Shown one piece after another: positions 21,375 to 53,590 of a stretch of 64,000 nt of DNA (position 1 is the stretch's first letter; each line of letters starts with the position of its first letter). The stretch is from an uncultured Candidatus Saccharibacteria bacterium (GTDB lineage: Bacteria > Patescibacteriota > Minisyncoccia > Phycocordibacterales > Zambryskibacteraceae), in NCBI GenBank assembly GCA_964357635.1, contig CAYHLZ010000001.1, positions 44,917 through 108,916 on the forward strand, read 5' to 3'. A program made the translations under genes and the position numbers. The notes under the pieces were generated by a model that searched no databases, was not told the DNA's origin, and saw nothing but the letters and a program-made list of their open reading frames with translations.

Positions 21375-23156
21375 ATGACGCTTCTTGCCATATCTTTTTT
21401 CGCCGGAATTTTGACGGTTCTTGCGCCTTGTATTCTGCCGCTCTTGCCGGTAGTAGTTGGTTCTTCTGCTTCTGGGAGAAGTAGGAGCACTCCTTACATT
21501 GTGGTTGGCTCACTCGCCATATCTATAATTCTTTTTACCTATCTTCTTAAGGCTTCCACTGCTTTTATTATGGTACCGCCAGAAGTTTGGACCTATCTTT
21601 CCGGTGGCATACTACTACTCTTTGGTTTAACACTCCTTTTTCCGGGTCTCTGGGAAAGATTGCCAGGTATAAACAAACTCTCGGCTGGTTCAAATAAACT
21701 TCTGGGCGAAGGATATCAGAAGAAAAGTTTCTGGGGAGACGTGATAGTAGGAGCATCTCTTGGTCCAATTTTTTCCACTTGTTCGCCGACCTATTTTGTT
21801 ATCCTTGCTTCCGTTTTGCCCGCTAGCTTTCTTCTCGGTACAGCATATCTGCTTTCATACACCCTTGGACTTTCACTCATCCTCCTCTTTATTGCACTTC
21901 TTGGTGAACGCTTCGCTAGTCGTCTTTCGGGATTCTCCGACCCTCAAAGTAAGTTTAAACGAAGCATTGGGGCTCTCTTTATTGTCCTTGGGCTCCTTAT
22001 TGCTCTCGGGTACGAAAAAAAACTTGAAACAGCTATTCTTGATAGTGGCTTTTTAGACATCACTAAGCTTGAAAACAAACTTCTAAACCGCCTTGATATG
22101 CCAGAAGAAAGCTATTTGCCAGATACCGGATCCGAAGTCATTTCGGAAGAACTAGTAGCCTCGAGTCCAGAGACTACCTCGCCCGCAAAACCCGTGCCGA
22201 AAGTGAAAGGTGTTCCATACAAAGAGATAGTGAAGCCGGCTGGGTTTGTTAATACGAATGACCTTCCTATAAAACTTTCTGATTATGTTGGTAAATCGGT
22301 GATTCTTCTTGATGTCATGACCTATTCATGCATCAACTGCCAGAGAACCTTCCCATACCTAGTTTCTTGGTACGAGAAATATAAAGACGACGGGTTTATT
22401 ATCGTCGGTATCCATACACCCGAGTTTGCATTTGAAAAAGACAAAGAAAATGTAGAAAAAGCGATGAAAGAGTTCGGCATCACATTCCCCATAGTCTTGG
22501 ACAATGACTTTGGCACTTGGAACGCTTATGGCAACCGTTACTGGCCGAGGAAATATCTTATTGATATCTACGGCAACATCGTCTACGACCACATTGGCGA
22601 GGGCGCCTATGAGGAAATTGAAATGAAGATAAAGGAGTTACTTAAAGAACGCGTCAAGGTTCTTGGGGAAGGAGAGATGCCGACTAACGGTGAACTTGTT
22701 TCAAAAACTATATCGCCCCAAGTAACCACTTCCCAAAGTCCCGAAACCTACTTTGGCTCGCTTAGAAACGAATATTTACGAAACGGCATGGTTGGTAGAA
22801 CAGGGGAACAGACTCTTACGGTACCGGCACAAATTTCTCTAAACGGACTGTATCTCGGTGGCACTTGGAACTTTAATGGTGAATACGCCAAGTCGGTTAA
22901 AAATTCAAAAGTAGTTTACCGATACAATGCAAAAGAAGTTTATATCGTAGCCAGTGCTGACAGCGCTCTTGAAATGGAGGTCTGGCAAGATGGCAAACTT
23001 GTGACGGCCGAGGCGGGGGCAGACGTAGTCAATGGCACTGTCACGATTAAAGAAAGTAAACTCTACAAACTTATAAAAAACATTACACCCGGCGAACACA
23101 CCCTAGAACTCCGCGCCGAAGACGGAATACTCCTCTTTGCCTTCACTTTCGGTTAA
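21375..23156 (+). CDS. CcdA/DsbD-like transmembrane thiol-disulfide transporter fused to TlpA/redoxin-like domain
   Basis: N-terminal multi-TM region with conserved Cys (LAPCILPLLP, STCSPTYF) typical of CcdA/DsbD. C-terminal thioredoxin-like YSCINC. Begins 2 nt after upstream trx-like gene. Confidence 0.7.
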   Translation: MTLLAISFFAGILTVLAPCILPLLPVVVGSSASGRSRSTPYIVVGSLAISIILFTYLLKASTAFIMVPPEVWTYLSGGILLLFGLTLLFPGLWERLPGINKLSAGSNKLLGEGYQKKSFWGDVIVGASLGPIFSTCSPTYFVILASVLPASFLLGTAYLLSYTLGLSLILLFIALLGERFASRLSGFSDPQSKFKRSIGALFIVLGLLIALGYEKKLETAILDSGFLDITKLENKLLNRLDMPEESYLPDTGSEVISEELVASSPETTSPAKPVPKVKGVPYKEIVKPAGFVNTNDLPIKLSDYVGKSVILLDVMTYSCINCQRTFPYLVSWYEKYKDDGFIIVGIHTPEFAFEKDKENVEKAMKEFGITFPIVLDNDFGTWNAYGNRYWPRKYLIDIYGNIVYDHIGEGAYEEIEMKIKELLKERVKVLGEGEMPTNGELVSKTISPQVTTSQSPETYFGSLRNEYLRNGMVGRTGEQTLTVPAQISLNGLYLGGTWNFNGEYAKSVKNSKVVYRYNAKEVYIVASADSALEMEVWQDGKLVTAEAGADVVNGTVTIKESKLYKLIKNITPGEHTLELRAEDGILLFAFTFG

Positions 23157-23210
23157 TCCAATTTATCTTTAAAGAAAAAACCACTTCACATTTTGACACA
23201 TGAAATGGTT

Positions 23211-23945
23211 TCAAAGTTTTTTCTGTCGCTCCCGCCATTCCGAGATTTGCTTCCTTGATCCCGATAGTACCGTTACCAAGAGTCTCGGCTCTGTGATGTT
23301 GGGCTCGGAGTGGAGCACAGCATCTGCGTCACCGACAAGGTAAATAGTCGCCCCGCCAGCGCCCCCCATCGCTAACGGTTCGACAACTTCCGCAAGCTTC
23401 TTTCTTATGCGCAGGTCTTCTTCGTCAAACTTATCCGGGTTGGATAAATTTTCCATGTAATTTTTACTGGCTTCCTCAATTAACCTGTCTGCCAGTGCCT
23501 CATCTCTTGCTACACCGAAAAGAGTTTGCGGACCCTTCAACGTAGTTGCAAGTTTGTAGCACTTTTTTTCTGAAGCAAAGTACTTGCCATCAGGATGCCA
23601 GCGCGGAACAACAAACTCATTTGCGGGAAGTTGTGCTCGCACCATGGTCCAGACGGCCTCTCCGCCGAAGCCTTGGCACATTTCCTGCGAAAGCCGGAGA
23701 ACGATGCCAGCCACAGAAGAGAGGGTATCGGGGCTGTTATCACCGAGCCCGGCAAGGTGCCTTTCGAGCTGACTCTTGAGTAGCTTTGTGGGTAGTCCGA
23801 AAAAGTCAAACTGGTCCAACCTCCTATCAATAACGAGGTCATTGAGGTGACTTCTCTCACCAGACGGGAGGAACATGTCAATGTTAAGCAGTCTTTCCGA
23901 ATCGAGTTTTCCCAAAGAGTCACGAAGTATTTCCTTAATGAACAC
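23211..23945 (-). CDS. Hypothetical protein
   Basis: Long ORF in GC-rich islet; no motif recognised. Confidence 0.35.
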   Translation of the reverse strand: MFIKEILRDSLGKLDSERLLNIDMFLPSGERSHLNDLVIDRRLDQFDFFGLPTKLLKSQLERHLAGLGDNSPDTLSSVAGIVLRLSQEMCQGFGGEAVWTMVRAQLPANEFVVPRWHPDGKYFASEKKCYKLATTLKGPQTLFGVARDEALADRLIEEASKNYMENLSNPDKFDEEDLRIRKKLAEVVEPLAMGGAGGATIYLVGDADAVLHSEPNITEPRLLVTVLSGSRKQISEWRERQKKL

Positions 23946-24030
23946 GGGTTACTCCTGTGTAGCTTTTCCGCGTGCACATTATAATAAAATTTTCACTCTG
24001 TCAAGTTTTATAAAAAGAAGGACCCACACT

Positions 24031-24534
24031 TCATATGGGTCCCCCAAGGGTCTTTCTGAGTTCCGACAATTCATATTCTATGGTGTGTTCGAGTTCTCCT
24101 TTCGTCGGGTGAATCAGATTGATGTTTGAAACTCCGAGATTGACCTTGAAAAGCGAAAAGCTTGAATCTGGAACAAGAAGCAGAGCATGCTTTGACGTGG
24201 GTGTGAACCCCATGACATTACACGAGTAAAGGACTATCAATCCGTATTCAAAGTCACGCTTGTCAATCCAGGACTGAACGTAGCCAATGCGTCCTCGATC
24301 AGCGTAGAGCCAACTTCCCCTGCCAACACAACCGTGAGCCATGAGGCAGGCAGTACGTGTCTTTCCCACGCTCTTCTTGTAGGTTTCAATGTACTCTTTC
24401 TCAAAAACATCCAGTTCGGAGAGCAAAATATCAGGTTGACGGTAGATTATCTCCTCGTCACCCTCGTACTGACTGTAATGCTCTGCTGATACCCAGATAT
24501 CCATGTTGTGCTGGTCAAACGAAATCTTCCTCAC
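24031..24534 (-). CDS. Hypothetical protein
   Basis: ORF in islet; no motif recognised. Confidence 0.35.
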   Translation of the reverse strand: MRKISFDQHNMDIWVSAEHYSQYEGDEEIIYRQPDILLSELDVFEKEYIETYKKSVGKTRTACLMAHGCVGRGSWLYADRGRIGYVQSWIDKRDFEYGLIVLYSCNVMGFTPTSKHALLLVPDSSFSLFKVNLGVSNINLIHPTKGELEHTIEYELSELRKTLGGPI

Positions 24535-24582
24535 GCTTACCTCCTTTGCCTTGGTACAAACTACTCCTTTGGAAAACTGGAG

Positions 24583-24885
24583 TCAAACTTGTATTTCTAT
24601 AGAAAAACTTACCTTATCTTTGGCAAAGATTCCTTCCTTTTTACGAACAAGAGCTTTGAGGGGTAGGAGATAAGTGTCGGAGCGTTTATCAAAAAAGATT
24701 GATGTTCTCCAACTTGTTTTGCCGAGTGTCACCAAGACTGGGAGCGACCCCCAGCCACGATGTATAGAAGCAAATTGTTTCCTTATAATGGCCGCTTCTT
24801 TTTTCGGCAGATAAATAAAGTGCCAGCCCGCCATACCGGGGTAGAGAAGTACTTCTGACTTCAGTTTGTATGTGTTTGATTTCAT
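24583..24885 (-). CDS. DUF1905-like small protein
   Basis: ~100 aa with GMAGWHFIYLPK pattern resembling the DUF1905 (YdeI N-terminal) family; from memory. Confidence 0.45.
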   Translation of the reverse strand: MKSNTYKLKSEVLLYPGMAGWHFIYLPKKEAAIIRKQFASIHRGWGSLPVLVTLGKTSWRTSIFFDKRSDTYLLPLKALVRKKEGIFAKDKVSFSIEIQV

Positions 24886-24937
24886 CTCATCTATTCTAGC
24901 AAAAAGAAAAAGCCGGAGAGTTAGTCCGGCTTTCAGG

Positions 24938-25660
24938 CTAGGAGCATTTTTTCCTGCTAAGTTTTTTCAGAGCTACACGCTGATATTCCAGAGCAGCTGT
25001 CCTGACATCGTCATTCTGGAAGCGCAGAGGATGCTTGATGAGATAGACTATGCCCTGCTCCCCACATTTATTGATAATCGGGGCAACCAACCAATGACCG
25101 CCGTGGTACAGGAAGTCTCTATTTCGCCAGAGGAAGTCGCCGAAACTCTGAGGCAACCACCCCTCTCCACCTTTCGCATCCTTGGGGTAATATAGGTCGT
25201 CTTTGTACTGGAAATACGACGCCATACCCTCAGAGACAAGGGCTCTCCCAACTAACATGTCAAACTCAAGTTGAGAGTTTTTAGAAACATCTGGCAACAT
25301 TCCATTACCAATCCGCCGACTGATCTGGTCTACCAAGGCGTGCACAAGCTCATGTTTGACCACGAGTTGATCCACTGCCGCTTTCTTGGCGGGTGAGATA
25401 ATGAACGACTGTGTTTCCGGGTAGTACTGGGCGACGAAATCTCCCCGTAACTGTGGCGCGATGTCGTCGGGTATTTTGAAAACTACTAGTGGCTTCCAGT
25501 CTGGATCAAACTTGACCCCATACCTTTTTTCCATAGCTATCGCTTCATTGGCAAATGCCTTTTGCCAGTTGAGTTGGTCTACATCAAACACTTCTTGGCT
25601 GAAGTTTTGTGGTGCCAACAGTGTCAGTACCAGTAACAGTACAAGCCTGGACTTATTCAT
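24938..25660 (-). CDS. Secreted putative zinc metallopeptidase (HExxH)
   Basis: Signal peptide MNKSRLVLLLVLTLLAPQNFS; HELVHALVDQ motif. Confidence 0.4.
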   Translation of the reverse strand: MNKSRLVLLLVLTLLAPQNFSQEVFDVDQLNWQKAFANEAIAMEKRYGVKFDPDWKPLVVFKIPDDIAPQLRGDFVAQYYPETQSFIISPAKKAAVDQLVVKHELVHALVDQISRRIGNGMLPDVSKNSQLEFDMLVGRALVSEGMASYFQYKDDLYYPKDAKGGEGWLPQSFGDFLWRNRDFLYHGGHWLVAPIINKCGEQGIVYLIKHPLRFQNDDVRTAALEYQRVALKKLSRKKCS

Positions 25661-25782
25661 TTCGCTTCCTCTTTTCTATAAGGGTACGTTTCTAGTTGAG
25701 AACGATACTCGGGATATACACAAAATCAAGTTGACAAAGTATCCAGTATATTTACTCTCCGAATGACGCTTTTTATAAAAGA

Positions 25783-25827
25783 AGACCGCCTTTTCCAAAT
25801 TGGATTAGGCGGTTTTTAATGCATCAC
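25783..25827. terminator. Hairpin plus T-run (GACCGCC...GGCGGTTTTT)
   Basis: Seen directly; preceded by TTTTATAAAAG boundary motif. Confidence 0.5.
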
Positions 25828-25958
25828 TCTCTTCGAGGTTTATCTTCGACCACCTCCGGCCACATAGGATATCATCAAGAAAATTCCGATGATTCACGAG
25901 CTTCAAAAGGAGGAGAACCGTATTAGGGTTCTCCTGAGGACTGGTGAGTGAAGGAGGG

Positions 25959-26759
25959 TCACGATACAAACACTTCTACCCTGATGTTTTTACGAAGGAC
26001 GGCGATCATGCGCTGTCTACGTTCAGTGTTTTTTTTCGTGATTCGAAGGGTCGATGTTTTGCCATCGTAGACCTTGTCGACAAAACCCCACCGTTTTGCC
26101 TCGTCGGCCGAGAGCCAACAGTCGATTTTTTTTCTTGTGTTTTCATCGAGCATTTCGCGGATTGCTTTTTCCGAACGTCTGCTGAACATTCCTTGTTCTT
26201 TCAGGCGCGCGACGTAGATACGAAACATCCGCTCGGTTGCCCTGCGTCGCTCGATGTCGACTGTATCCGCCACTTCGTCAAGACCATCGAACGCGTATGT
26301 TCCTCGATGGTACATGTATTGGGCCGGTGGGCGAATGACGAAACGGTCAGCCGCAAGCGGAATCAGGGATGTCATGGAGCGAGCCCATTTCGTTGCCAAT
26401 ACGGTAATCGGGTTTGGTGCATGAAGTATTGCTCCGAACATCTGCATGCCTTCTTCCCAATTGCCACCGCAACTTGCCATTTTGACAAGAATTGGTCGCT
26501 CAGGATCCAGGTTACCGAGGATACTAAGGTTGAGCTCAAAACGATCTGCCATGTTGTGCTCAACCCCCGGCTCATCACCGTTGTCAGAATTGTCGGTATT
26601 ACCTGTTTGTTGCGGGTCTCCGCCAACGTAGATAACAAAGTCATGTCTGTCCAGGCGATAGAGATGAATGTCTTCAGGAAAGAAGTCACCCATCATTGCC
26701 TGCCTGAGATAGGCCTCGTGCCCTTTATGACGGGCCGATTTTTTTGCTCGGGAACGCAT
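25959..26759 (-). CDS. ClpP-like (S14 family) serine peptidase homologue
   Basis: C-terminal LSADEAKRWGFVDKV resembles the ClpP C-terminal helix; central MASCGG and YMYHRG segments as candidate Ser/His positions. In GC-rich islet. Confidence 0.5.
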   Translation of the reverse strand: MRSRAKKSARHKGHEAYLRQAMMGDFFPEDIHLYRLDRHDFVIYVGGDPQQTGNTDNSDNGDEPGVEHNMADRFELNLSILGNLDPERPILVKMASCGGNWEEGMQMFGAILHAPNPITVLATKWARSMTSLIPLAADRFVIRPPAQYMYHRGTYAFDGLDEVADTVDIERRRATERMFRIYVARLKEQGMFSRRSEKAIREMLDENTRKKIDCWLSADEAKRWGFVDKVYDGKTSTLRITKKNTERRQRMIAVLRKNIRVEVFVS

Positions 26760-26959
26760 TACTGAGCCTCCTTTTTTTCAGAAGACCTTGTTTGTCTAGC
26801 GACCGTGTTTCTCGTTGTCATGGTCGGCTCCTTGGTGGTTCTGTAAAAAAGCTTAAAGTCCGTCGTGCATACTACTCCATCAAGAATAAATAAGCAAAAG
26901 AAAAGCCCCCGAGAAATCCCGGGGGCCTTTGAGGTTCGTGAGTTAGAGAAAACTCGTCT

Positions 26960-27409
26960 CTAACTCACGGCGCAGGAGAAGCGCTTCGGTGCCCTGCGAG
27001 GGACTCCAAGCTTCTCCTTGAGGAACCACTTGTGCTGGTCGAGATCATAGTACCCACGAAGGTCCTTCTTGATCTCGCGGATCTTCTGGACGAGCTCCTG
27101 ACCACCCCTTTCGTTCTTGAAGAGGCAGGAGGCGTTTGCGACCTCCTCAATTGCTTCAGGGCACACAAGGAGGATGCCGAGTGCCACCTTGCGGAATTCG
27201 TAAGGCGACGTGGCAGGGATGAGGAGCTCGATGATGGACTGGCGCCAACCCTTCGCCCGTCGCGCCTGCTCTTCATTCAGACGATCGAGGAGTTTCTTGC
27301 GAGGGTCCTCTACCCTTGCAATCTTGTTTGCTCGTCCTCTCTGAACGATCTCTGCGGTGATGAAAGCATCACGGAGCGAGTTAATGCTCATGCCAATTCT
27401 CCAATTCAT
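26960..27409 (-). CDS. Hypothetical protein
   Basis: ORF with 13-bp inverted repeat hairpin overlapping its stop codon (26927..26962). Confidence 0.35.
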   Translation of the reverse strand: MNWRIGMSINSLRDAFITAEIVQRGRANKIARVEDPRKKLLDRLNEEQARRAKGWRQSIIELLIPATSPYEFRKVALGILLVCPEAIEEVANASCLFKNERGGQELVQKIREIKKDLRGYYDLDQHKWFLKEKLGVPRRAPKRFSCAVS

Positions 27410-27511
27410 GTAACGAACACGCGGAACCGCCGCGCACGTTTTATCCTTATCAATTATAGCACGTTCAAATCATTTGTCAAGTATTAACTATATAATAAAC
27501 TTTTACTTAAA

Positions 27512-27727
27512 CTAAGATTCTCTCAAATATTTAAATCGAGAAACCTTCTCACCCTTGACCACAACCTCTTCTTCAAACATAGATCTAGGTCTTGCCCATA
27601 GTTTAGAAATACCATTGTCATACAAGGGTTCGTAAATCACCAAATCTTCAAGCGTCTCACTATGCTTGGCAATACCTATAACCCGATACTCCTTTCCTTT
27701 GTAGTGTTTGTATATTCCCAACTTCAT
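27512..27727 (-). CDS. DUF1653-family small protein
   Basis: YKHYKGKEYRVIGIAKHSETLEDLVIYEPLY matches the DUF1653 signature (from memory). Confidence 0.55.
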   Translation of the reverse strand: MKLGIYKHYKGKEYRVIGIAKHSETLEDLVIYEPLYDNGISKLWARPRSMFEEEVVVKGEKVSRFKYLRES

Positions 27728-27731
27728 TGTT

Positions 27732-27983
27732 TCAACGATGAGGACAACCGGCCCAACAACACGGGCGACGTATTCCAGCCATTAACTCGTCGCGCACCCT
27801 TTCAACATGGTTTCTTCTTGTTTCCGCTTTTTTCACCGAGATAGTCCAGCAGATCCATTCGTTTCTTGCGAGCGGGGTAATATCTTCCCACGCTTTTTTT
27901 GCCTTTGGGTTAGAAGTAAGAGCTTTTCGCAAATCTGCAGGAAGTTTATGTGCCGTACCAAAAGAGGGTTCGTTTTTACTCAT
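27732..27983 (-). CDS. YdeI/OmpD-associated family-like small protein
   Basis: PADLRKALTSNPKAKKAWEDITPLARNEWICWTISVKKAETRRNHVERV resembles PF13376. Confidence 0.45.
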   Translation of the reverse strand: MSKNEPSFGTAHKLPADLRKALTSNPKAKKAWEDITPLARNEWICWTISVKKAETRRNHVERVRDELMAGIRRPCCWAGCPHR

Positions 27984-28987
27984 AGTTAGAGTTTTGTTTG
28001 TTCTGGATTTTTCTTTCTGCTCTTTACGAGAAATACAATACCGGTAATAACCACTACCAGTCCGAGGAGTTGTCCTCCGGGGCTATCGTCGTATCCACCA
28101 TAAACAACCATAAACGCTCCAAACAATATTGCCAAAATTGAATACGCCATTTTTCTTTTATTCATATGAAGATTATACCGTTTATACAAAAGAAAACCGC
28201 CCTTTATCCCGGGGCGGCATCGGTCGACTCACTCACGTCACGAGTGATCAGTACTGCAAACTCCTCTACTTCTTGAGGGGGAATCCCCAGAGTTGAAGCA
28301 GCACGATCCAACTGTTCCTTGAAAGGGCCGTTGAGGAGTAGCCCGTCTCTTCGTAGTTGTTGCTTGAGAAGAAGATAGCCGATCTCACACTTACGCTCTT
28401 TATTCATTGCAGTCCTCGAGTGTAACGTTGGTCCAATACATATATACCAGCTACTCGTGATAAATGCAAAATTATTATTACTTCGTGTAGTACTAAAATA
28501 AAGAAAGAAGCTACTGGCTCCGCGACAGTTTTTATAAAAGGAAGACCGCCCGAAGGAGGTCTTCCTTGGGCGGTCACGTGTGGCGGAAATGTCCTTTTTC
28601 TTTGTACTTTCTTGCTTGTAGAAGAGCTTCTTCCAGTGGTAAGGATGGAACGAAATCAATCACTGTTTCATCCAACCCACATGTTGAAACTAGAACAATC
28701 TGAGAACAGAGGGTATAGGACGCCATGTGAATCTTGACGGCCATGGTAACACCCCCAGCTTGTTTCTTATCGAAAATTTCACGCAGTAGAGCGTTTATCA
28801 GTTCCATCAACATCTCCCATTGAGTTTGGACTTCTAGAGGACGGAAAGGTTCTAATCGCCATGTTTATCTATCTCTCAGCTTATGTCAAGTACGGGCTCC
28901 GCGACCGGTTTTATAAAAATAAACCGCTGTGCCTGATGGACACAACGGTTTTTTAACAGATACGAAGGCCTTACTCACATATCCTTC

Positions 28988-29170
28988 CTAGCGCCTCGGT
29001 CGGGACTGATCACACTTTTCAAGATATTGAGCAAGAGCCTCTCTTGTAATATCTGCTAGTGACTTCTTCTCGCGGAAAGCTATGTTCCGCAACAGGTCAT
29101 GTGTTCGTGACTCTATCGCCACAAACAGTTTAACGGGACATATCAACTTTGTCTTGTTGGCCACAGCCAC
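28988..29170 (-). CDS. Putative ribbon-helix-helix (CopG/Arc-like) DNA-binding protein
   Basis: 60 aa; C-terminal SLADITREALAQYLEK resembles RHH helix pair. Confidence 0.35.
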   Translation of the reverse strand: MAVANKTKLICPVKLFVAIESRTHDLLRNIAFREKKSLADITREALAQYLEKCDQSRPRR

Positions 29171-29397
29171 TCTCCCCTAGTTTATAGATCGTTGCCCGCG
29201 CCACAATAACAAGAAATTATAAGCCTTGTCAATTTGTCTCCGCGACAGGGATCTCTCGGCTTACAGCCGCAGTACACCTTTCGTATTTTCTCATCCTTCA
29301 ACAAATTCAGGACTCGAAAATATATTCAAGGTCTTCTCGCCCTGGACGCAAGCAGGTTCACTGCTTGCTTCGCGTCGCAAAATTGCAAACAATTTTG

Positions 29398-29470
29398 CTC
29401 CGCGACCAGGGCTCGAACCTGGGACATCCTCCTTAACAGGGAGGCGCTCTACCAACTGAGCTATCGCGGA
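29398..29470 (-). tRNA. tRNA-Asn (anticodon GTT)
   Basis: Reverse complement TCCGCGATAGCTCAGTTGGTAGAGCGCCTCCCTGTTAAGGAGGATGTCCCAGGTTCGAGCCCTGGTCGCGGAG; 7-bp acceptor stem, D-loop GG, anticodon loop CUGUUAA, T-loop GGTTCGAGCCC. No encoded CCA. Confidence 0.85.
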
Positions 29471-29736
29471 ATGGATGCTAGAATAATAATGGTAATTTAG
29501 ACATTAATCAATTAAGGATTAAATATGGACCAAAAAAGTTATTATTATGTCACGGGAACCGTTTTCCTTATTATTGCTGTTCTACATTTCTTGAGACTTA
29601 TCTACGGATGGCCAGCCAATATTGGTACTTTTGTGGTGCCGATGTGGTTAAGTTGGGCTGCCCTGGTCTTTGCCGGATATCTCGCATACCAAGGATTAAA
29701 AATAAAAAGATAACCTAAAGATGCTAGAATAGCGCT

Positions 29737-31193: not shown

Positions 31194-32522
31194 CTAGTTG
31201 CCTCGTAGGAAATCTTGCCAACCCATCTCTCGCTTACCAGCGGGGGTAACGCGGACTGGGACAAACTTACCATCTTTTATCTCGGCATCTTTGACTACTA
31301 ATCTAATTTCTTTCCCACTCTTGTTCCTGAAGAACATGTAGGCCGTTGGCCAAGTACTATACGCCAAGACTTTTCTCAAATTTTTCTCTGCAGATTCGTT
31401 TAGGTCAAGAAGTCCGTCTTCTTTTTTTATTAGTTTGGTAAAACTTACTTTCTTCTCATCCTGTGGTATCTCTTTCACTTCTCCCTCAATCCATTTTGGA
31501 AGTAGAACCCCGAGTATTCTACCGCCAGCACGAGCAAGCTTTTCTTCTACGACAGCATAGTGGTCTGGCCAAGGAGTTATTGGAACTCGTGCCTGCGCCA
31601 ATATTGGTCCGTGGTCCACTTTCTCATCCATTTTAATTATCGTTACCCCCGCTTCTTCTTCTGCAAGAATTGTTTCTTGAATAGGTGAGGCGCCCCGCAA
31701 CTTTGGCAGAAGTGAGGGGTGGACATTGAGCGCACCATATTTTGGAAGAGAGAGAATCTCTTTCGGCAAGATTTTACCGAATGATGCTACCACATAAACA
31801 TCTGCATCTAACTTTTTTAATTTATCTGGAGATGGAATATCTTTTATAGAACTTATATTAAGCACCGGAGAAAGACCAGCCACTTCAAGCTCCTCCAGAA
31901 CATATTTTGAAAATTGAGAACTACCGAAGAAGACAAACTTAACCACCGCTTTTAGCGGGGTCCCGCCAACGGCGGTGACCGCTTTCTTCGGTGGGACATC
32001 TTGGACATTTTCTGCATTATCAATGAAAAGAACGCCATTTAGATGGTCTATCTCGTGCTGGAAAATCTGTGCCAGAAGTTCTGATGCGCCTCGCTCAATA
32101 AGTTTCCCTGTTTCGTTGTAGGCTCTCAAAGTTACTTTATCAGCTCTTTTTACCTGCCCGTAGAGCCAACGTATTGAGAGACAGCCTTCTTCCAACTTCT
32201 CTTTTTTCCTAGAAGTTTTAATTATTTCTGGGTTGATAAATACCAAATCTTTCGTTGTCTGAGGCAGTTTTGGCACTGGTCCGACATTTAAGTTTCTTTT
32301 TTTTGTTAACATCAAAACATCGCCTCGGACGATAAAGAGTCTCAGACTCTCACCAATCTGTGGCGCAGCGAGCGCCACTCCGTCTTCTTCGGCATGGAGC
32401 GATGTGTGCATCTTCTCTAGAAGGCCTTTAATCTTTTTTCCACCAATTTCTTTTAGGGGCACACTCTTAGCCACCTTTCTCAATACAGGCGCATCTTTTT
32501 GTAATATTTCTGTTTTTGTCAT
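31194..32522 (-). CDS. Fused peptide deformylase / methionyl-tRNA formyltransferase
   Basis: N-terminal Def motifs GVALAAPQIG, EGCLSI, HEIDHLNG. C-terminal Fmt motifs VVASFGKILP, NVHPSLLPKLRG, GVTIIKMDEKVDHGPIL plus Fmt C-terminal domain. Confidence 0.8.
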   Translation of the reverse strand: MTKTEILQKDAPVLRKVAKSVPLKEIGGKKIKGLLEKMHTSLHAEEDGVALAAPQIGESLRLFIVRGDVLMLTKKRNLNVGPVPKLPQTTKDLVFINPEIIKTSRKKEKLEEGCLSIRWLYGQVKRADKVTLRAYNETGKLIERGASELLAQIFQHEIDHLNGVLFIDNAENVQDVPPKKAVTAVGGTPLKAVVKFVFFGSSQFSKYVLEELEVAGLSPVLNISSIKDIPSPDKLKKLDADVYVVASFGKILPKEILSLPKYGALNVHPSLLPKLRGASPIQETILAEEEAGVTIIKMDEKVDHGPILAQARVPITPWPDHYAVVEEKLARAGGRILGVLLPKWIEGEVKEIPQDEKKVSFTKLIKKEDGLLDLNESAEKNLRKVLAYSTWPTAYMFFRNKSGKEIRLVVKDAEIKDGKFVPVRVTPAGKREMGWQDFLRGN

Positions 32523-46763: not shown

Positions 46764-46839
46764 TGGTGGACCCTACCGGATTCGAACCGGTGACCTCCTC
46801 ATTGCAAATGAGGCGCTCTACCAACTAAGCTAAGGGCCC
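46764..46839 (-). tRNA. tRNA-Ala (anticodon TGC) with encoded CCA
   Basis: Reverse complement GGGCCCTTAGCTTAGTTGGTAGAGCGCCTCATTTGCAATGAGGAGGTCACCGGTTCGAATCCGGTAGGGTCCACCA; G3:U70 pair, canonical D- and T-loops. Confidence 0.85.
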
Positions 46840-46921
46840 TTCGATGGACTCAGGACAAGCCCAATAAGGCAAAAGTATAGTGGACAAAGACCGAAAAATC
46901 AATTAAAAATAATCAATAAAA

Positions 46922-46995
46922 GGGCCTATAGTATAGTAGTAACACGCGTCCATGGCATGGACGAGTCGCGAGTGCGATTCTCGCTAGGTCCACCA
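46922..46995 (+). tRNA. Atypical tRNA-like element (Ala-like acceptor with G3:U70, anticodon-loop GGC, degenerate D- and T-loops; possible pseudo-tRNA)
   Basis: GGGCCTA...TAGGTCCACCA acceptor with G3:U70; anticodon arm CGTCC-ATGGCAT-GGACG; T-arm GCGAG-TGCGATT-CTCGC lacks TTC; D-arm lacks GG. CCA abuts the ATG of the next ORF. Confidence 0.35.
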
Positions 46996-50123: not shown

Positions 50124-51200
50124 ATGAAAACCCTATCCACGAACCTAGCGATGAGATTAGCGATTATCTTCGCGGTCTCTATGGTGGCTGGCACGGCGTT
50201 TTATGCGCGCGGATTGGAGCCGGGCACTACCTTCGCGCCTGGCAACTTTGACTTCAAGATTGATAGCGAAGCAAGTTACAACGGTAACTTTGTGCCCTCC
50301 GGCACCTGGAGTCTCAAGAATTTGGTACCCGGCGTTGACAGGTTCTTTAACTTCGACGACATCAAACCCGGCGACCAAGGGGAGAACACCATCTCACTCC
50401 ACGCCAACAAAAACGCGTGGATGTGTCTTGACTTCATAAATCTTCAAGAAAACGAGAACGGTATAAACGAACCAGAAAGTGAGCTTGATATCACAGGAAG
50501 TGGTGGGGAACTTGCCGACGGCATGGAATTCTTCTCTTGGAATGACGATGGAGACAACATTTTTGAGCTGGGAGAAAAACCTATCTTTGGAACCTCAACA
50601 CAATCTGCTTCAATCGTTCTTGCTTCCACGACCTATGCCGTGGCTGATGCTTTGGGTGGCCAGGCATGTAAGGCAGACAAGACTTGCTACATCGGCATTT
50701 ACTGGTGTGCTGGAAATCTCGAGGTCAACTTAAATACCGCAGAGATTACTTGTGACCATACGACCCTCGGCAACGAGGCGCAGACCGACATCATGACTGT
50801 TGATGTGCGCTTCCGTGCCTATCCGTCGGAAGAGAACCCCGGGCTTCGCTGCGATGGAAAGAAGATTTCTGGTTGTAGTCCCGGCTACTGGAAGAAATCT
50901 AGCCACTTTGACGAATGGACGGCACCCTACACTCCTAACACTCTTTTCTCTTCTGTCTTTGATAACGCCTTCCCCGGCAAGAACCTGAAGCAGGTCTTGA
51001 CGATAACCGGTGGCGGTCTTAATGCCTTAGGCCGACAGACAGTCGCAGCACTTCTCAATGCGGCAAATCCTGAGGTTGGTTATGCCTACAGCGTCGCGGA
51101 GGTAATATCTATGTTTAACGCTGTCTACCCCGGTGGCGACTACGAGACGCTGAAAAACCTCTTTGAAAAACACAACACTAAGTTTTGTCCTCTGAATTAA
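50124..51200 (+). CDS. TasA/CalY-like secreted protein, paralogue 3 (more divergent)
   Basis: Signal peptide; FDDIKPGDQGENTISLHANKNAWMCLDF block shared with paralogues 1-2. N-terminal motif degenerate (TTFAPGNFDFKIDSE). Confidence 0.6.
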   Translation: MKTLSTNLAMRLAIIFAVSMVAGTAFYARGLEPGTTFAPGNFDFKIDSEASYNGNFVPSGTWSLKNLVPGVDRFFNFDDIKPGDQGENTISLHANKNAWMCLDFINLQENENGINEPESELDITGSGGELADGMEFFSWNDDGDNIFELGEKPIFGTSTQSASIVLASTTYAVADALGGQACKADKTCYIGIYWCAGNLEVNLNTAEITCDHTTLGNEAQTDIMTVDVRFRAYPSEENPGLRCDGKKISGCSPGYWKKSSHFDEWTAPYTPNTLFSSVFDNAFPGKNLKQVLTITGGGLNALGRQTVAALLNAANPEVGYAYSVAEVISMFNAVYPGGDYETLKNLFEKHNTKFCPLN

Positions 51201-52972: not shown

Positions 52973-53590
52973 TTGATGAGTAAGAGAACCAGCCCTCGCC
53001 CTAGAGTCTCTAGAGTGGGGGCTTGTTCGTGGCCAGGTTCTGACCCTCTGATGAGGCTCTACCACGACAGAGAGTGGGGCAAACCCGAGAGGGGCGATGT
53101 CAAAATTTTTCGGGCGATACTTCTAGATACATTTCAGGCTGGGCTTTCTTGGCAGATTATCTTACACAAGAGAAAAAACTTTGCTAGAGCTTTTGATAAT
53201 TTTAATTATGAAAAAATTGCCAAATATGCGCCAGTCAAAAAGGCCAGGCTTCTAAAAGATTCGGGGATTATAAGAAATCGTTTGAAAATAGCGGGAACAA
53301 TAGAAAATGCTAAGGCTTTTATAAAAGTCAGAAATGAATTTGGAACATTTTCTAAGTACATCTGGAGTTTTATTGAAAATAGGCCCATTACAAATAAACA
53401 CAAAGATTCTAGTAACATTGCTTCAAGTACAGAACTTTCTGATAAAATTAGTAAAAATCTAAAATCTCGTGGTTTTAAATTCTGTGGTACTACGGTAACC
53501 TACGCCTTTATGCAAGGTATTGGTATGGTCAATGACCACGTGCAAACCTGTTTCCGCTACCAAGAGTTGAGGAGGTTTGGTAAAAGCTAA
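52973..53590 (+). CDS. tag: DNA-3-methyladenine glycosylase I
   Basis: CSWPGSDPLMRLYHDREWGKP (Tag N-terminal Zn/Cys + YHDxEWG), HhH-GPD-like core. Confidence 0.8.
   Translation: MMSKRTSPRPRVSRVGACSWPGSDPLMRLYHDREWGKPERGDVKIFRAILLDTFQAGLSWQIILHKRKNFARAFDNFNYEKIAKYAPVKKARLLKDSGIIRNRLKIAGTIENAKAFIKVRNEFGTFSKYIWSFIENRPITNKHKDSSNIASSTELSDKISKNLKSRGFKFCGTTVTYAFMQGIGMVNDHVQTCFRYQELRRFGKS

Follow-up and report, generated by a model that had tools for sequence, protein, structure and literature searches.

What do the partial copies of the tRNA-Asn 3' end that lie behind the tRNA-Asn(GUU) gene represent in the 64,000-nt stretch analyzed here (the window; contig CAYHLZ010000001.1, positions 44,917 to 108,916), and how did the small units that they bound come to lie there? 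The original prediction, made from this sequence, read the 6 kb next to the tRNA gene as a stack of attL-like scars left by repeated integration and decay. The explanation preferred here, with moderate confidence, is that serial site-specific insertion at the tRNA-Asn 3' end gave rise to one gene-less module and two promoter-gene-terminator mini-cassettes. The host, an ultra-small groundwater bacterium, has a Zambryskibacteria-like genome (Paceibacteria; Candidate Phyla Radiation, CPR), in which the tRNA-Asn 3' end would be an insertion hot spot. Under this model, three units would lie behind tRNA-Asn, each closing in ...GTCGCGGAG. Unit 1 (29238 to 29396) would be a gene-less element of approximately 160 nt made up of a hairpin and a 140-nt structured module; unit 2 (28897 to 29237) would comprise a promoter, a 60-aa gene, a terminator, and boundary b1; and unit 3 (28518 to 28896) would comprise a promoter, a 79-aa orphan gene, a terminator, and boundary b2, after which the next genes follow. 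Each unit would have entered by recombination in or beside the GGAG of the tRNA end, restoring the tRNA and moving the older units outward, and a degraded fourth boundary is possible at 25.77 kb. The features are listed in Table 1.

Table 1. Features of the tRNA-Asn locus, in window coordinates, with the basis of each assignment
Feature	Position	Strand	Basis and remarks
tRNA-Asn(GUU)	29397..29470	-	ARAGORN; Rfam tRNA, 69.8 bits; 3' end ...CCCTGGTCGCGGAG-C, putative insertion point
Trailer, weak A/T hairpin CAAAATTG-TTTG-CAATTTTG	29378..29396	-	Sequence; inverted repeat; comparison with other units
Structured tRNA-like module, 140 nt	29238..29377	-	Covariance model R1, 95.2 bits; alignment and covariation
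Copy a of the tRNA 3' end	29238..29250	-	CCCTG-TCGCGGAG, one-base deletion; right end of unit 1
Sigma-70-type promoter TTGACA-18-TATTGT with TG extension	29203..29232	-	Promoter scan, 10/12 matches; starts 6 nt past copy a
60-aa open reading frame (ORF), cargo of mini-cassette 1	28988..29170	-	ORF list; weak ribbon-helix-helix antitoxin-type likeness
Intrinsic terminator, cassette 1	28921..28951	-	Terminator scan, 13 pairs and T run
Boundary b1, TTTTATAAAA-CCG-GTCGCGGAG-CCCGTA	28891..28918	-	Right end of cassette 1; repeat family
79-aa ORF, cargo of mini-cassette 2	28574..28813	-	ORF list; orphan
Hairpin and T-tract closing cassette 2	28540..28590	-	Sequence; repeat family
Boundary b2, TTTTATAAAA-ACTG-TCGCGGAG-CCAGTA	28512..28539	-	Right end of cassette 2
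Degenerate b-type boundary TTTTATAAAA-AGCGTCATTCGGAGAGTA	25753..25780	-	68% identity to b2 over 28 nt
TTTTATAAAA	24006..24015		Directly upstream of the TTGACA-17-TATAAT promoter of the 244-aa gene; outside the feature

Copies of the tRNA-Asn 3' end and the units between them

The 9-mer CTCCGCGAC, complementary to the acceptor 3' strand and discriminator of tRNA-Asn, occurs on the same strand at 28518, 28897, 29238, and 29398, that is, four times in 900 bp, and a fifth copy lies on the opposite strand at 51093, within an ORF. The chance expectation over the full 64 kb is 0.13, and five copies were reached in none of 100 shuffles. These counts bear out the original prediction of serial copies in one orientation, and the alignment of the fragments, which had been proposed as a way to derive a core, reveals copies longer than claimed. 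In the tRNA sense, the tRNA-Asn 3' end reads CCCTGGTCGCGGAGCAAAATTG, copy a (29238) reads CCCTG-TCGCGGAGACAAATTG, copy b1 (28897) reads CCGGTCGCGGAGCCCGTA, and copy b2 (28518) reads CTG-TCGCGGAGCCAGTA; including flanks, the three copies extend beyond the 9-mer to 12 to 16 nt of the tRNA-Asn 3' end. The copies at 29238, 28897, and 28518 thus form the distal direct repeats that characterize tRNA-targeting islands, and they are shorter than typical. Copies b1 and b2 share a 28-nt block with 89% identity, outside which the two cassettes are unrelated to each other. The 60-aa cargo of the first matches Pfam PSK_trans_fac with an E value of 0.009, under the curated cutoff, whereas the 79-aa cargo of the second has no Pfam match and found only itself among 5.8 billion proteins. 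An exact look-up of a 67-aa protein found no record.

The motif TTTTATAAAA occurs at 24006, 25771, 28530, and 28909, as well as at 53317, with 0.28 copies expected. At b1, b2, and 25771, it is located between a hairpin and a tRNA-like fragment, and the arrangement claimed next to the tRNA fragments is therefore present. The further proposals that it is a general boundary motif and that it could mark intact elements in related genomes did not hold. The motif is largely a terminator T-tract plus a promoter-upstream A/T tract, and the copy at 24006 lies directly before the -35 box of a promoter and is not an att feature, since that promoter is kept in the sister species (locus L009) while the A/T tract there differs. 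The exact boundary TTTTATAAAA-N3-GTCGCGGAG was found in no contigs other than those of this genome itself, and a single IMG/VR match to the b-type boundary, which falls inside an unrelated phage gene, is attributed to chance. The degenerate boundary at 25753 to 25780 sits between the ClpP-like gene and the HExxH gene and, judging by its sequence, may be an old scar. No homologue of the HExxH gene was found in any related locus searched, L009 included.

The structured module and its distribution in relatives

The copy at 29238 is the end of a conserved structured module and hence not a bare scar. The original description of the copies as attL-like scars therefore stands insofar as they bound units and fails for this copy. 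The window module was matched by covariance model R1 with an E value of 2.6e-23 in a first search and 8.9e-24 in a second. Members of the family follow a common layout, in which the tRNA end is followed by a terminator hairpin, the P1 5' strand (exactly complementary to the acceptor 3' strand and discriminator), AG, hairpin A (8 to 9 bp), CG, the T-stem 5' strand with TTCGAA(A/G)A, the long hairpin P2, TGTACTG, P3 with the loop CTGTAAG, (C/A)GA(A)AT, and the T-stem 3' strand with the acceptor 3' strand and G. The corresponding parts in the window are the P1 5' strand CGACGCGA, hairpin A GCAAGCAG/CTGCTTGC, the T-stem 5' strand plus CGAGAA, helix P2, GTACTG, helix P3 with the loop CTGTAAG, AGAGAT, and the T-stem 3' strand plus the acceptor 3' strand, and the weak trailer hairpin at 29378 to 29396 sits where other loci have the unit-opening terminator hairpin. 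The tail agrees with the tRNA in its last 9 nt exactly, or over 13 nt with one deletion. By its R1 match, its position directly 3' of tRNA-Asn, and this tRNA-copying tail, the window module is a member of the family.

The pairing of the module is conserved. RNAalifold predicted 24 pairs from 30 sequences, 18 of them with compensatory changes, and compensatory changes occur in 22 of 33 module pairs. Over the five helices, including P1, 89.8% of cells are paired, compared with 70% in shuffled alignments and 36 to 50% when the partners are slid, and both-side changes were found in 201 cells versus 70 in shuffles, a value that none of 500 shuffles reached. The single-stranded motifs TTCGAA, TGTACTG, and CTGTAAG are conserved, and the helices are arranged like the acceptor/T-arm stack of a tRNA. 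Watson-Crick pairs make up 95% of the helices and G-U pairs less than 2%, and the tRNA-sense strand has 21 G-U versus 9 A-C pairs, which makes folding as RNA plausible, although the module may also form a hairpin at the DNA level.

All of these features (the paired cells, the both-side and compensatory changes, the single-stranded motifs, the acceptor/T-arm layout, and the excess of G-U over A-C pairs) also speak for a resident structured noncoding RNA, that is, a tRNA mimic kept beside tRNA-Asn by selection, whose tail would come from mimicry or gene conversion. Such a mimic would have an acceptor-like helix and a T-arm with the TTCGA T-loop motif, after which two extra hairpins are inserted. 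This reading is possible but doubtful. A structured RNA would not usually have so high a Watson-Crick content with so few G-U pairs. The module is preceded by a terminator hairpin and lacks an evident promoter, modules form arrays of two to four in which some members have tRNA tails that differ from the host tRNA, and identical units are found in different flanks. The two readings are compatible if a mobile unit encodes the RNA. Serial insertion remains the preferred explanation for the locus; the module itself may be mobile as a mini-element, serve as a folded attachment site, act as a tRNA-mimic RNA, or combine several of these roles.

The module family appears to be undescribed, having no Rfam match and no counterpart in limited literature searches. 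In Rfam 15 E-value scans of window positions 22900 to 29700 and of seven loci with modules, the output was limited to tRNA, group I intron, and matches far under the gathering scores. The strict module motif had zero matches in IMG/VR, and a blastn search of the tRNA plus module against 50,697 phage records gave a match limited to the tRNA part.

Relatives were collected through a def-fmt fusion gene 1.8 kb away, which was matched in 80 Paceibacteria/Zambryskibacteria genomes at up to 67% identity, and tRNA-Asn is syntenic with it in many of them (loci of relatives carry L numbers here). In the window, this gene (31194 to 32522, minus strand) fuses peptide deformylase and methionyl-tRNA formyltransferase in 442 aa, and the fusion is kept in 80 of 80 related Paceibacteria loci. 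A strict module motif built from four examples and scanned over metagenome contigs identified 52 loci, with fewer than one expected by our own estimate, and two matches, both located within coding sequence, are probably due to chance. With the covariance model, 66 matches (approximately 55 distinct sequences) were obtained from 49 sources, mostly straight after tRNA-Asn. Modules also form arrays, with four members in L104, three in L091 and L029, and two in eight loci, and the gaps between members measure 37 to 125 nt, 0.5 to 1 kb, or 2.4 to 3.7 kb. In 19 of 24 cases, the first module and its own tRNA share a tail of 13 or more exact nt, with length classes of 14 and 19 to 20 nt, whereas outer modules of an array can have another tRNA-type tail, unlike the host tRNA.

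The repetition of the tRNA tail is clade-wide and directional. When the 12-mer of the tRNA 3' end was searched with up to one mismatch around 37 tRNAs in related loci, it recurred 10 times downstream on the same strand, compared with zero times upstream on the same strand, zero times downstream inverted, and once upstream inverted. A copy of the own-tRNA tail lies 100 to 180 nt behind the tRNA in the window and in L020, L025, L044, L057, and L065, as an exact 14-mer in these five loci and with a one-base deletion in the window. The units are discrete, as identical or near-identical ones occur in unrelated flanks: the left boundary falls between GGAG and C in L128/L125, L088/L121, L091 a/b, and L100/L124, and the right boundary breaks just after GGAG in L089/L092 and L125/L128. 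In at least 14 units, including copy a and b1 of the window, a consensus TTGACA-17-TATAAT promoter lies 5 to 10 nt past the copy. In many unrelated loci, the usual order is thus that one unit closes with the tRNA tail and the next one opens with a promoter.

This order also bears on another reading of b1 and b2, which takes them not for recombination products but for a regulatory or spacer motif close to promoters or for a terminator-promoter junction that was duplicated locally. The TTGACA that follows within 6 to 8 nt of b1 (at 28884 to 28889, directly after the boundary) and of copy a fits this reading, as do the 28-nt block, which could be one duplicated intergenic junction, and the restriction of the b-type motif to this genome. 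It is nevertheless improbable, because the motif is the tRNA 3' end with three T-stem bases and CCA or CCC (b2 has a CCA, as do the tRNA genes of relatives L013 and L039), b2 has no TTGACA behind it, the cassettes are otherwise unrelated, and the tail-then-promoter logic is seen in so many unrelated loci.

Several further observations concern tRNA genes of the relatives. One module (L120, 615 to 833) lies behind tRNA-Arg instead of tRNA-Asn, with a direct repeat of at least 52 nt that includes the trailer hairpin. A group I intron is present in the anticodon loop of tRNA-Asn in L107 (3498 to 3738) and L091 (8889 to 9129), with Intron_gpI scores of 82 to 87 bits, which explains why ARAGORN misses the tRNA-Asn genes of these relatives; sequence similar to the intron-bearing tRNA-Asn is also found in L101, L126, L134, L139, and L029. 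Partial copies of the tRNA-Asn 5' part occur in L009 (9340 to 9442), L012 (12884 to 12957), L021 (13750 to 13937), and L051 (15460 to 15584), upstream of the real gene or alone, and are followed by hairpin-rich inserts, of which those in L021 and L051 match the module model weakly (28 to 41 bits). They may be a 5'-side mirror image of what is seen at the tRNA 3' end.

Recombinases and junctions at tRNA-Asn

Three related loci (L021, L059, and L077) contain ORFs of 522 to 576 aa with Resolvase, Recombinase, and Zn_ribbon_recom domains. These ORFs directly adjoin the 3' end of tRNA-Asn on the opposite strand, with frames that run into the tRNA. In L021 (13971 to 14010), L059, and L077, no stop precedes the tRNA, and the last residues (e.g., ...GSNLRPIA) are encoded antisense to its T-arm. 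Recombinase fragments adjoin the tRNA in L053, L073, and L030 and the 3' copy of the module in L020, L044, and L126. L053 contains a 3.9-kb island with a recombinase fragment on the tRNA side, seven cargo genes, and a distal 12-nt tail copy with one mismatch. Two candidates were rejected: the L124 recombinase as a module neighbor, its gene being 4.4 kb off, and a 10-mer within the L021 ORF as a distal tRNA-end copy, which was taken as chance. The enzyme family implicated is that of large serine recombinases, and recombinases of this kind would have moved the units. Intact elements, which had been suggested as something to look for in related genomes, are thus represented by recombinase ORFs at the tRNA-Asn junction, and none of them has the TTTTATAAAA boundary. 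The tyrosine integrases implied by the term attL-like scars do not match the large serine recombinases at this junction.

A classical stack of tRNA islands formed by tyrosine integrases whose genes have since been lost, with the repeats as attR cores, would resemble the asn-tDNA hot spots of, e.g., Klebsiella (PMC4891358) and small integrase-less islands with direct repeats (PMC3191183), but it is very improbable here, as no tyrosine integrase lies beside tRNA-Asn in the related loci whose downstream ORFs were inspected, the junction recombinases are of the serine type, and synteny with the sister species extends over the distal part of the 6 kb.

The assembly graphs add a signal at the same position. 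The sample came from Hainich groundwater well H41 (0.1-um fraction), and the graphs of three samples branch at approximately 29399, which corresponds to A72/G73 of the tRNA. Two SPAdes-type assemblies with k=55 have left contigs that stop at 29453 and right contigs that begin at 29399, with a 55-nt overlap, and the left contig of a k=31 assembly from another run stops at 29431, so that an anchor at about 29399 is common to both k values. The right contig runs for 171 kb, unbroken on the 5' side of the tRNA. The common anchor and the unbroken right contig suggest that more than one sequence is joined to the tRNA tail in the population. Simple tRNA repeats shared across species do not fit these contig breaks well, since such repeats would be at odds both with a 171-kb contig that passes the tRNA 5' side unbroken and with breaks anchored at 29399 for k=31 and k=55 alike. 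The public metagenome-assembled genome GCA_038057835.1 splits the locus between two contigs, one for each side (JBBUCI010000006 and JBBUCI010000001), with a 55-nt overlap within the tRNA.

Several observations count against serial insertion by such enzymes. Copies b1 and b2 have just 12 to 16 nt, and their TTTTATAAAA boundary was seen in no other genome. The Pfam gene tables over 1 to 61 kb include no recombinase of any kind, and no integrase Pfam family is present in these tables or in 23.2 to 29.4 kb; tblastn (E of 1e-3 or less) detected no serine-recombinase remnant anywhere in the window. The intact recombinase elements of relatives are without a distal tRNA-end copy within 7 to 9 kb, and recombinase and module are linked through their adjacency in a small number of loci. 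A 2-bp crossover suffices for serine recombinases, and long direct repeats are not a product of these enzymes themselves. An empty site, an excised circle, or an alternative junction was not observed, and the graph branch is indirect. With no recombinase in the window, the units would be either fossils or served by a recombinase encoded elsewhere. The insertion model predicts circle junctions such as ...TTTTATAAAACCGGTCGCGGAG joined to ACAAATTGACA. A limited literature search found nothing relevant on serine recombinases at tRNA genes in CPR bacteria.

A more far-reaching reading, which is unlikely, holds that the module is the attachment element of an unrecognized cassette-capture system of CPR bacteria. 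Its fixed primary site would be the tRNA-Asn 3' end, each insertion would be marked or guided by a folded tRNA mimic of approximately 135 nt (RNA or single-stranded DNA), and a trans-acting recombinase would shuffle small cassettes that bring their own promoters. If so, this would be an integron-like platform built on another recombinase and a tRNA-shaped site.

Gene content of the 6-kb region and comparison with known systems

The gene content claimed for the 6-kb region was largely as described. Pfam confirmed the ClpP-like, DUF1905, DUF1653, and YdeI/OmdA genes, the sequence of the 240-aa protein shows a HExxH motif and a signal peptide, and in the ORF list every gene in 23.2 to 29.2 kb is on the minus strand. 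The region is not especially GC-rich, as its mean of approximately 0.47 compares with approximately 0.44 for the window, where other stretches reach 0.50. Behind tRNA-Asn of the sister species, DUF1905, the 244-aa gene, and the ClpP leader are syntenic, with 76 to 82% nucleotide identity. The identity of these distal genes equals or exceeds that of the flanking core genes, and the VanY region aligns at 73%. The synteny and identity indicate that the distal 2 kb of the claimed island was inherited and is not a recent acquisition. The proximal units are absent from L009, which is too diverged for clean breakpoints. The predicted stack of integrations is therefore supported for the proximal 0.9 kb, where there are boundaries and units of the same kind occur in relatives, and not for the whole 6 kb. 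A noncoding leader of approximately 60 to 90 nt (26806 to 26899) upstream of the ClpP-like gene is 81 to 82% conserved in L009 and L013, despite which the ClpP-like protein is just about 28% identical to its L009 counterpart.

Elsewhere in the window, tRNA-Ala UGC and GGC genes lie back to back at 46764 to 46995, 82 nt apart on opposite strands. Beside them is an HTH_3/Peptidase_M78 pair, followed by a higher-GC stretch at 48 to 53 kb with an S24-peptidase-like gene, and this neighborhood may be another variable region.

CPR bacteria have tiny genomes, and their mobile DNA is little documented. The tRNA-Asn locus is a recurrent, clade-wide site of large serine recombinases, and the structured module provides a searchable marker for variable DNA in CPR genomes. 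Should the module function as an RNA or as a folded recombination site, it would represent a new way to specify an integration site. Recombinases whose target is a short, universal tRNA sequence are also interesting as integration tools.

The locus resembles several known systems in part. Site-specific accretion is known to form cis-mobilizable elements (CIMEs) in the integrative and conjugative elements of Streptococcus. The asn tDNA is an island hot spot in Klebsiella and Escherichia coli (PMC4891358), and small integrase-less islands with flanking direct repeats have been described (PMC3191183). As in such tRNA islands, insertion here would take place at the tRNA-Asn 3' end and restore the tRNA, partial 3' copies lie at the outer ends, and some units have no recombinase. 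In contrast to them, the units are 160 to 380 bp instead of kilobases, the repeats are 9 to 20 nt, one unit type is gene-less and consists of the module only, and the enzyme of the relatives is a large serine recombinase and not a tyrosine recombinase.

Large serine recombinases include those of phiC31, Bxb1, and A118. The Resolvase/Recombinase/Zn_ribbon_recom ORFs of the relatives lie, like the genes of serine integrase elements, at one end of the insert and read towards the junction. Serine integrases are best known for protein-coding targets, whereas the target here would be a tRNA 3' end with the ORF running into its antisense strand, and the window itself has no recombinase. The unit boundaries map to GGAG, and attL and attR of approximately 40 to 50 bp that have a 2-bp crossover in common are what marks serine-recombinase elements. 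Integron arrays are similar in that small co-oriented cassettes lie at one fixed site, with separators of approximately 60 to 140 nt in which pairing is conserved over sequence, and, as in attC, an inverse core pairs with the terminal core (helix P1). Unlike in integrons, no IntI-type integrase was found, the core is the tRNA tail CCNNNGGAG and not GTTRRRY, each cassette has its own promoter and terminator, and the module has strong sequence motifs and a tRNA-like layout. The tRNA-like domain of transfer-messenger RNA (tmRNA) and YrlA (bacterial Y-RNA-like) share with the module an acceptor-like helix on a T-arm with the TTCGA T-loop motif. The module differs from them in having no Rfam match and no D-arm or anticodon arm, in its paired discriminator base, in the two hairpins that follow its T-loop motif, and in a tail that copies the neighboring tRNA.

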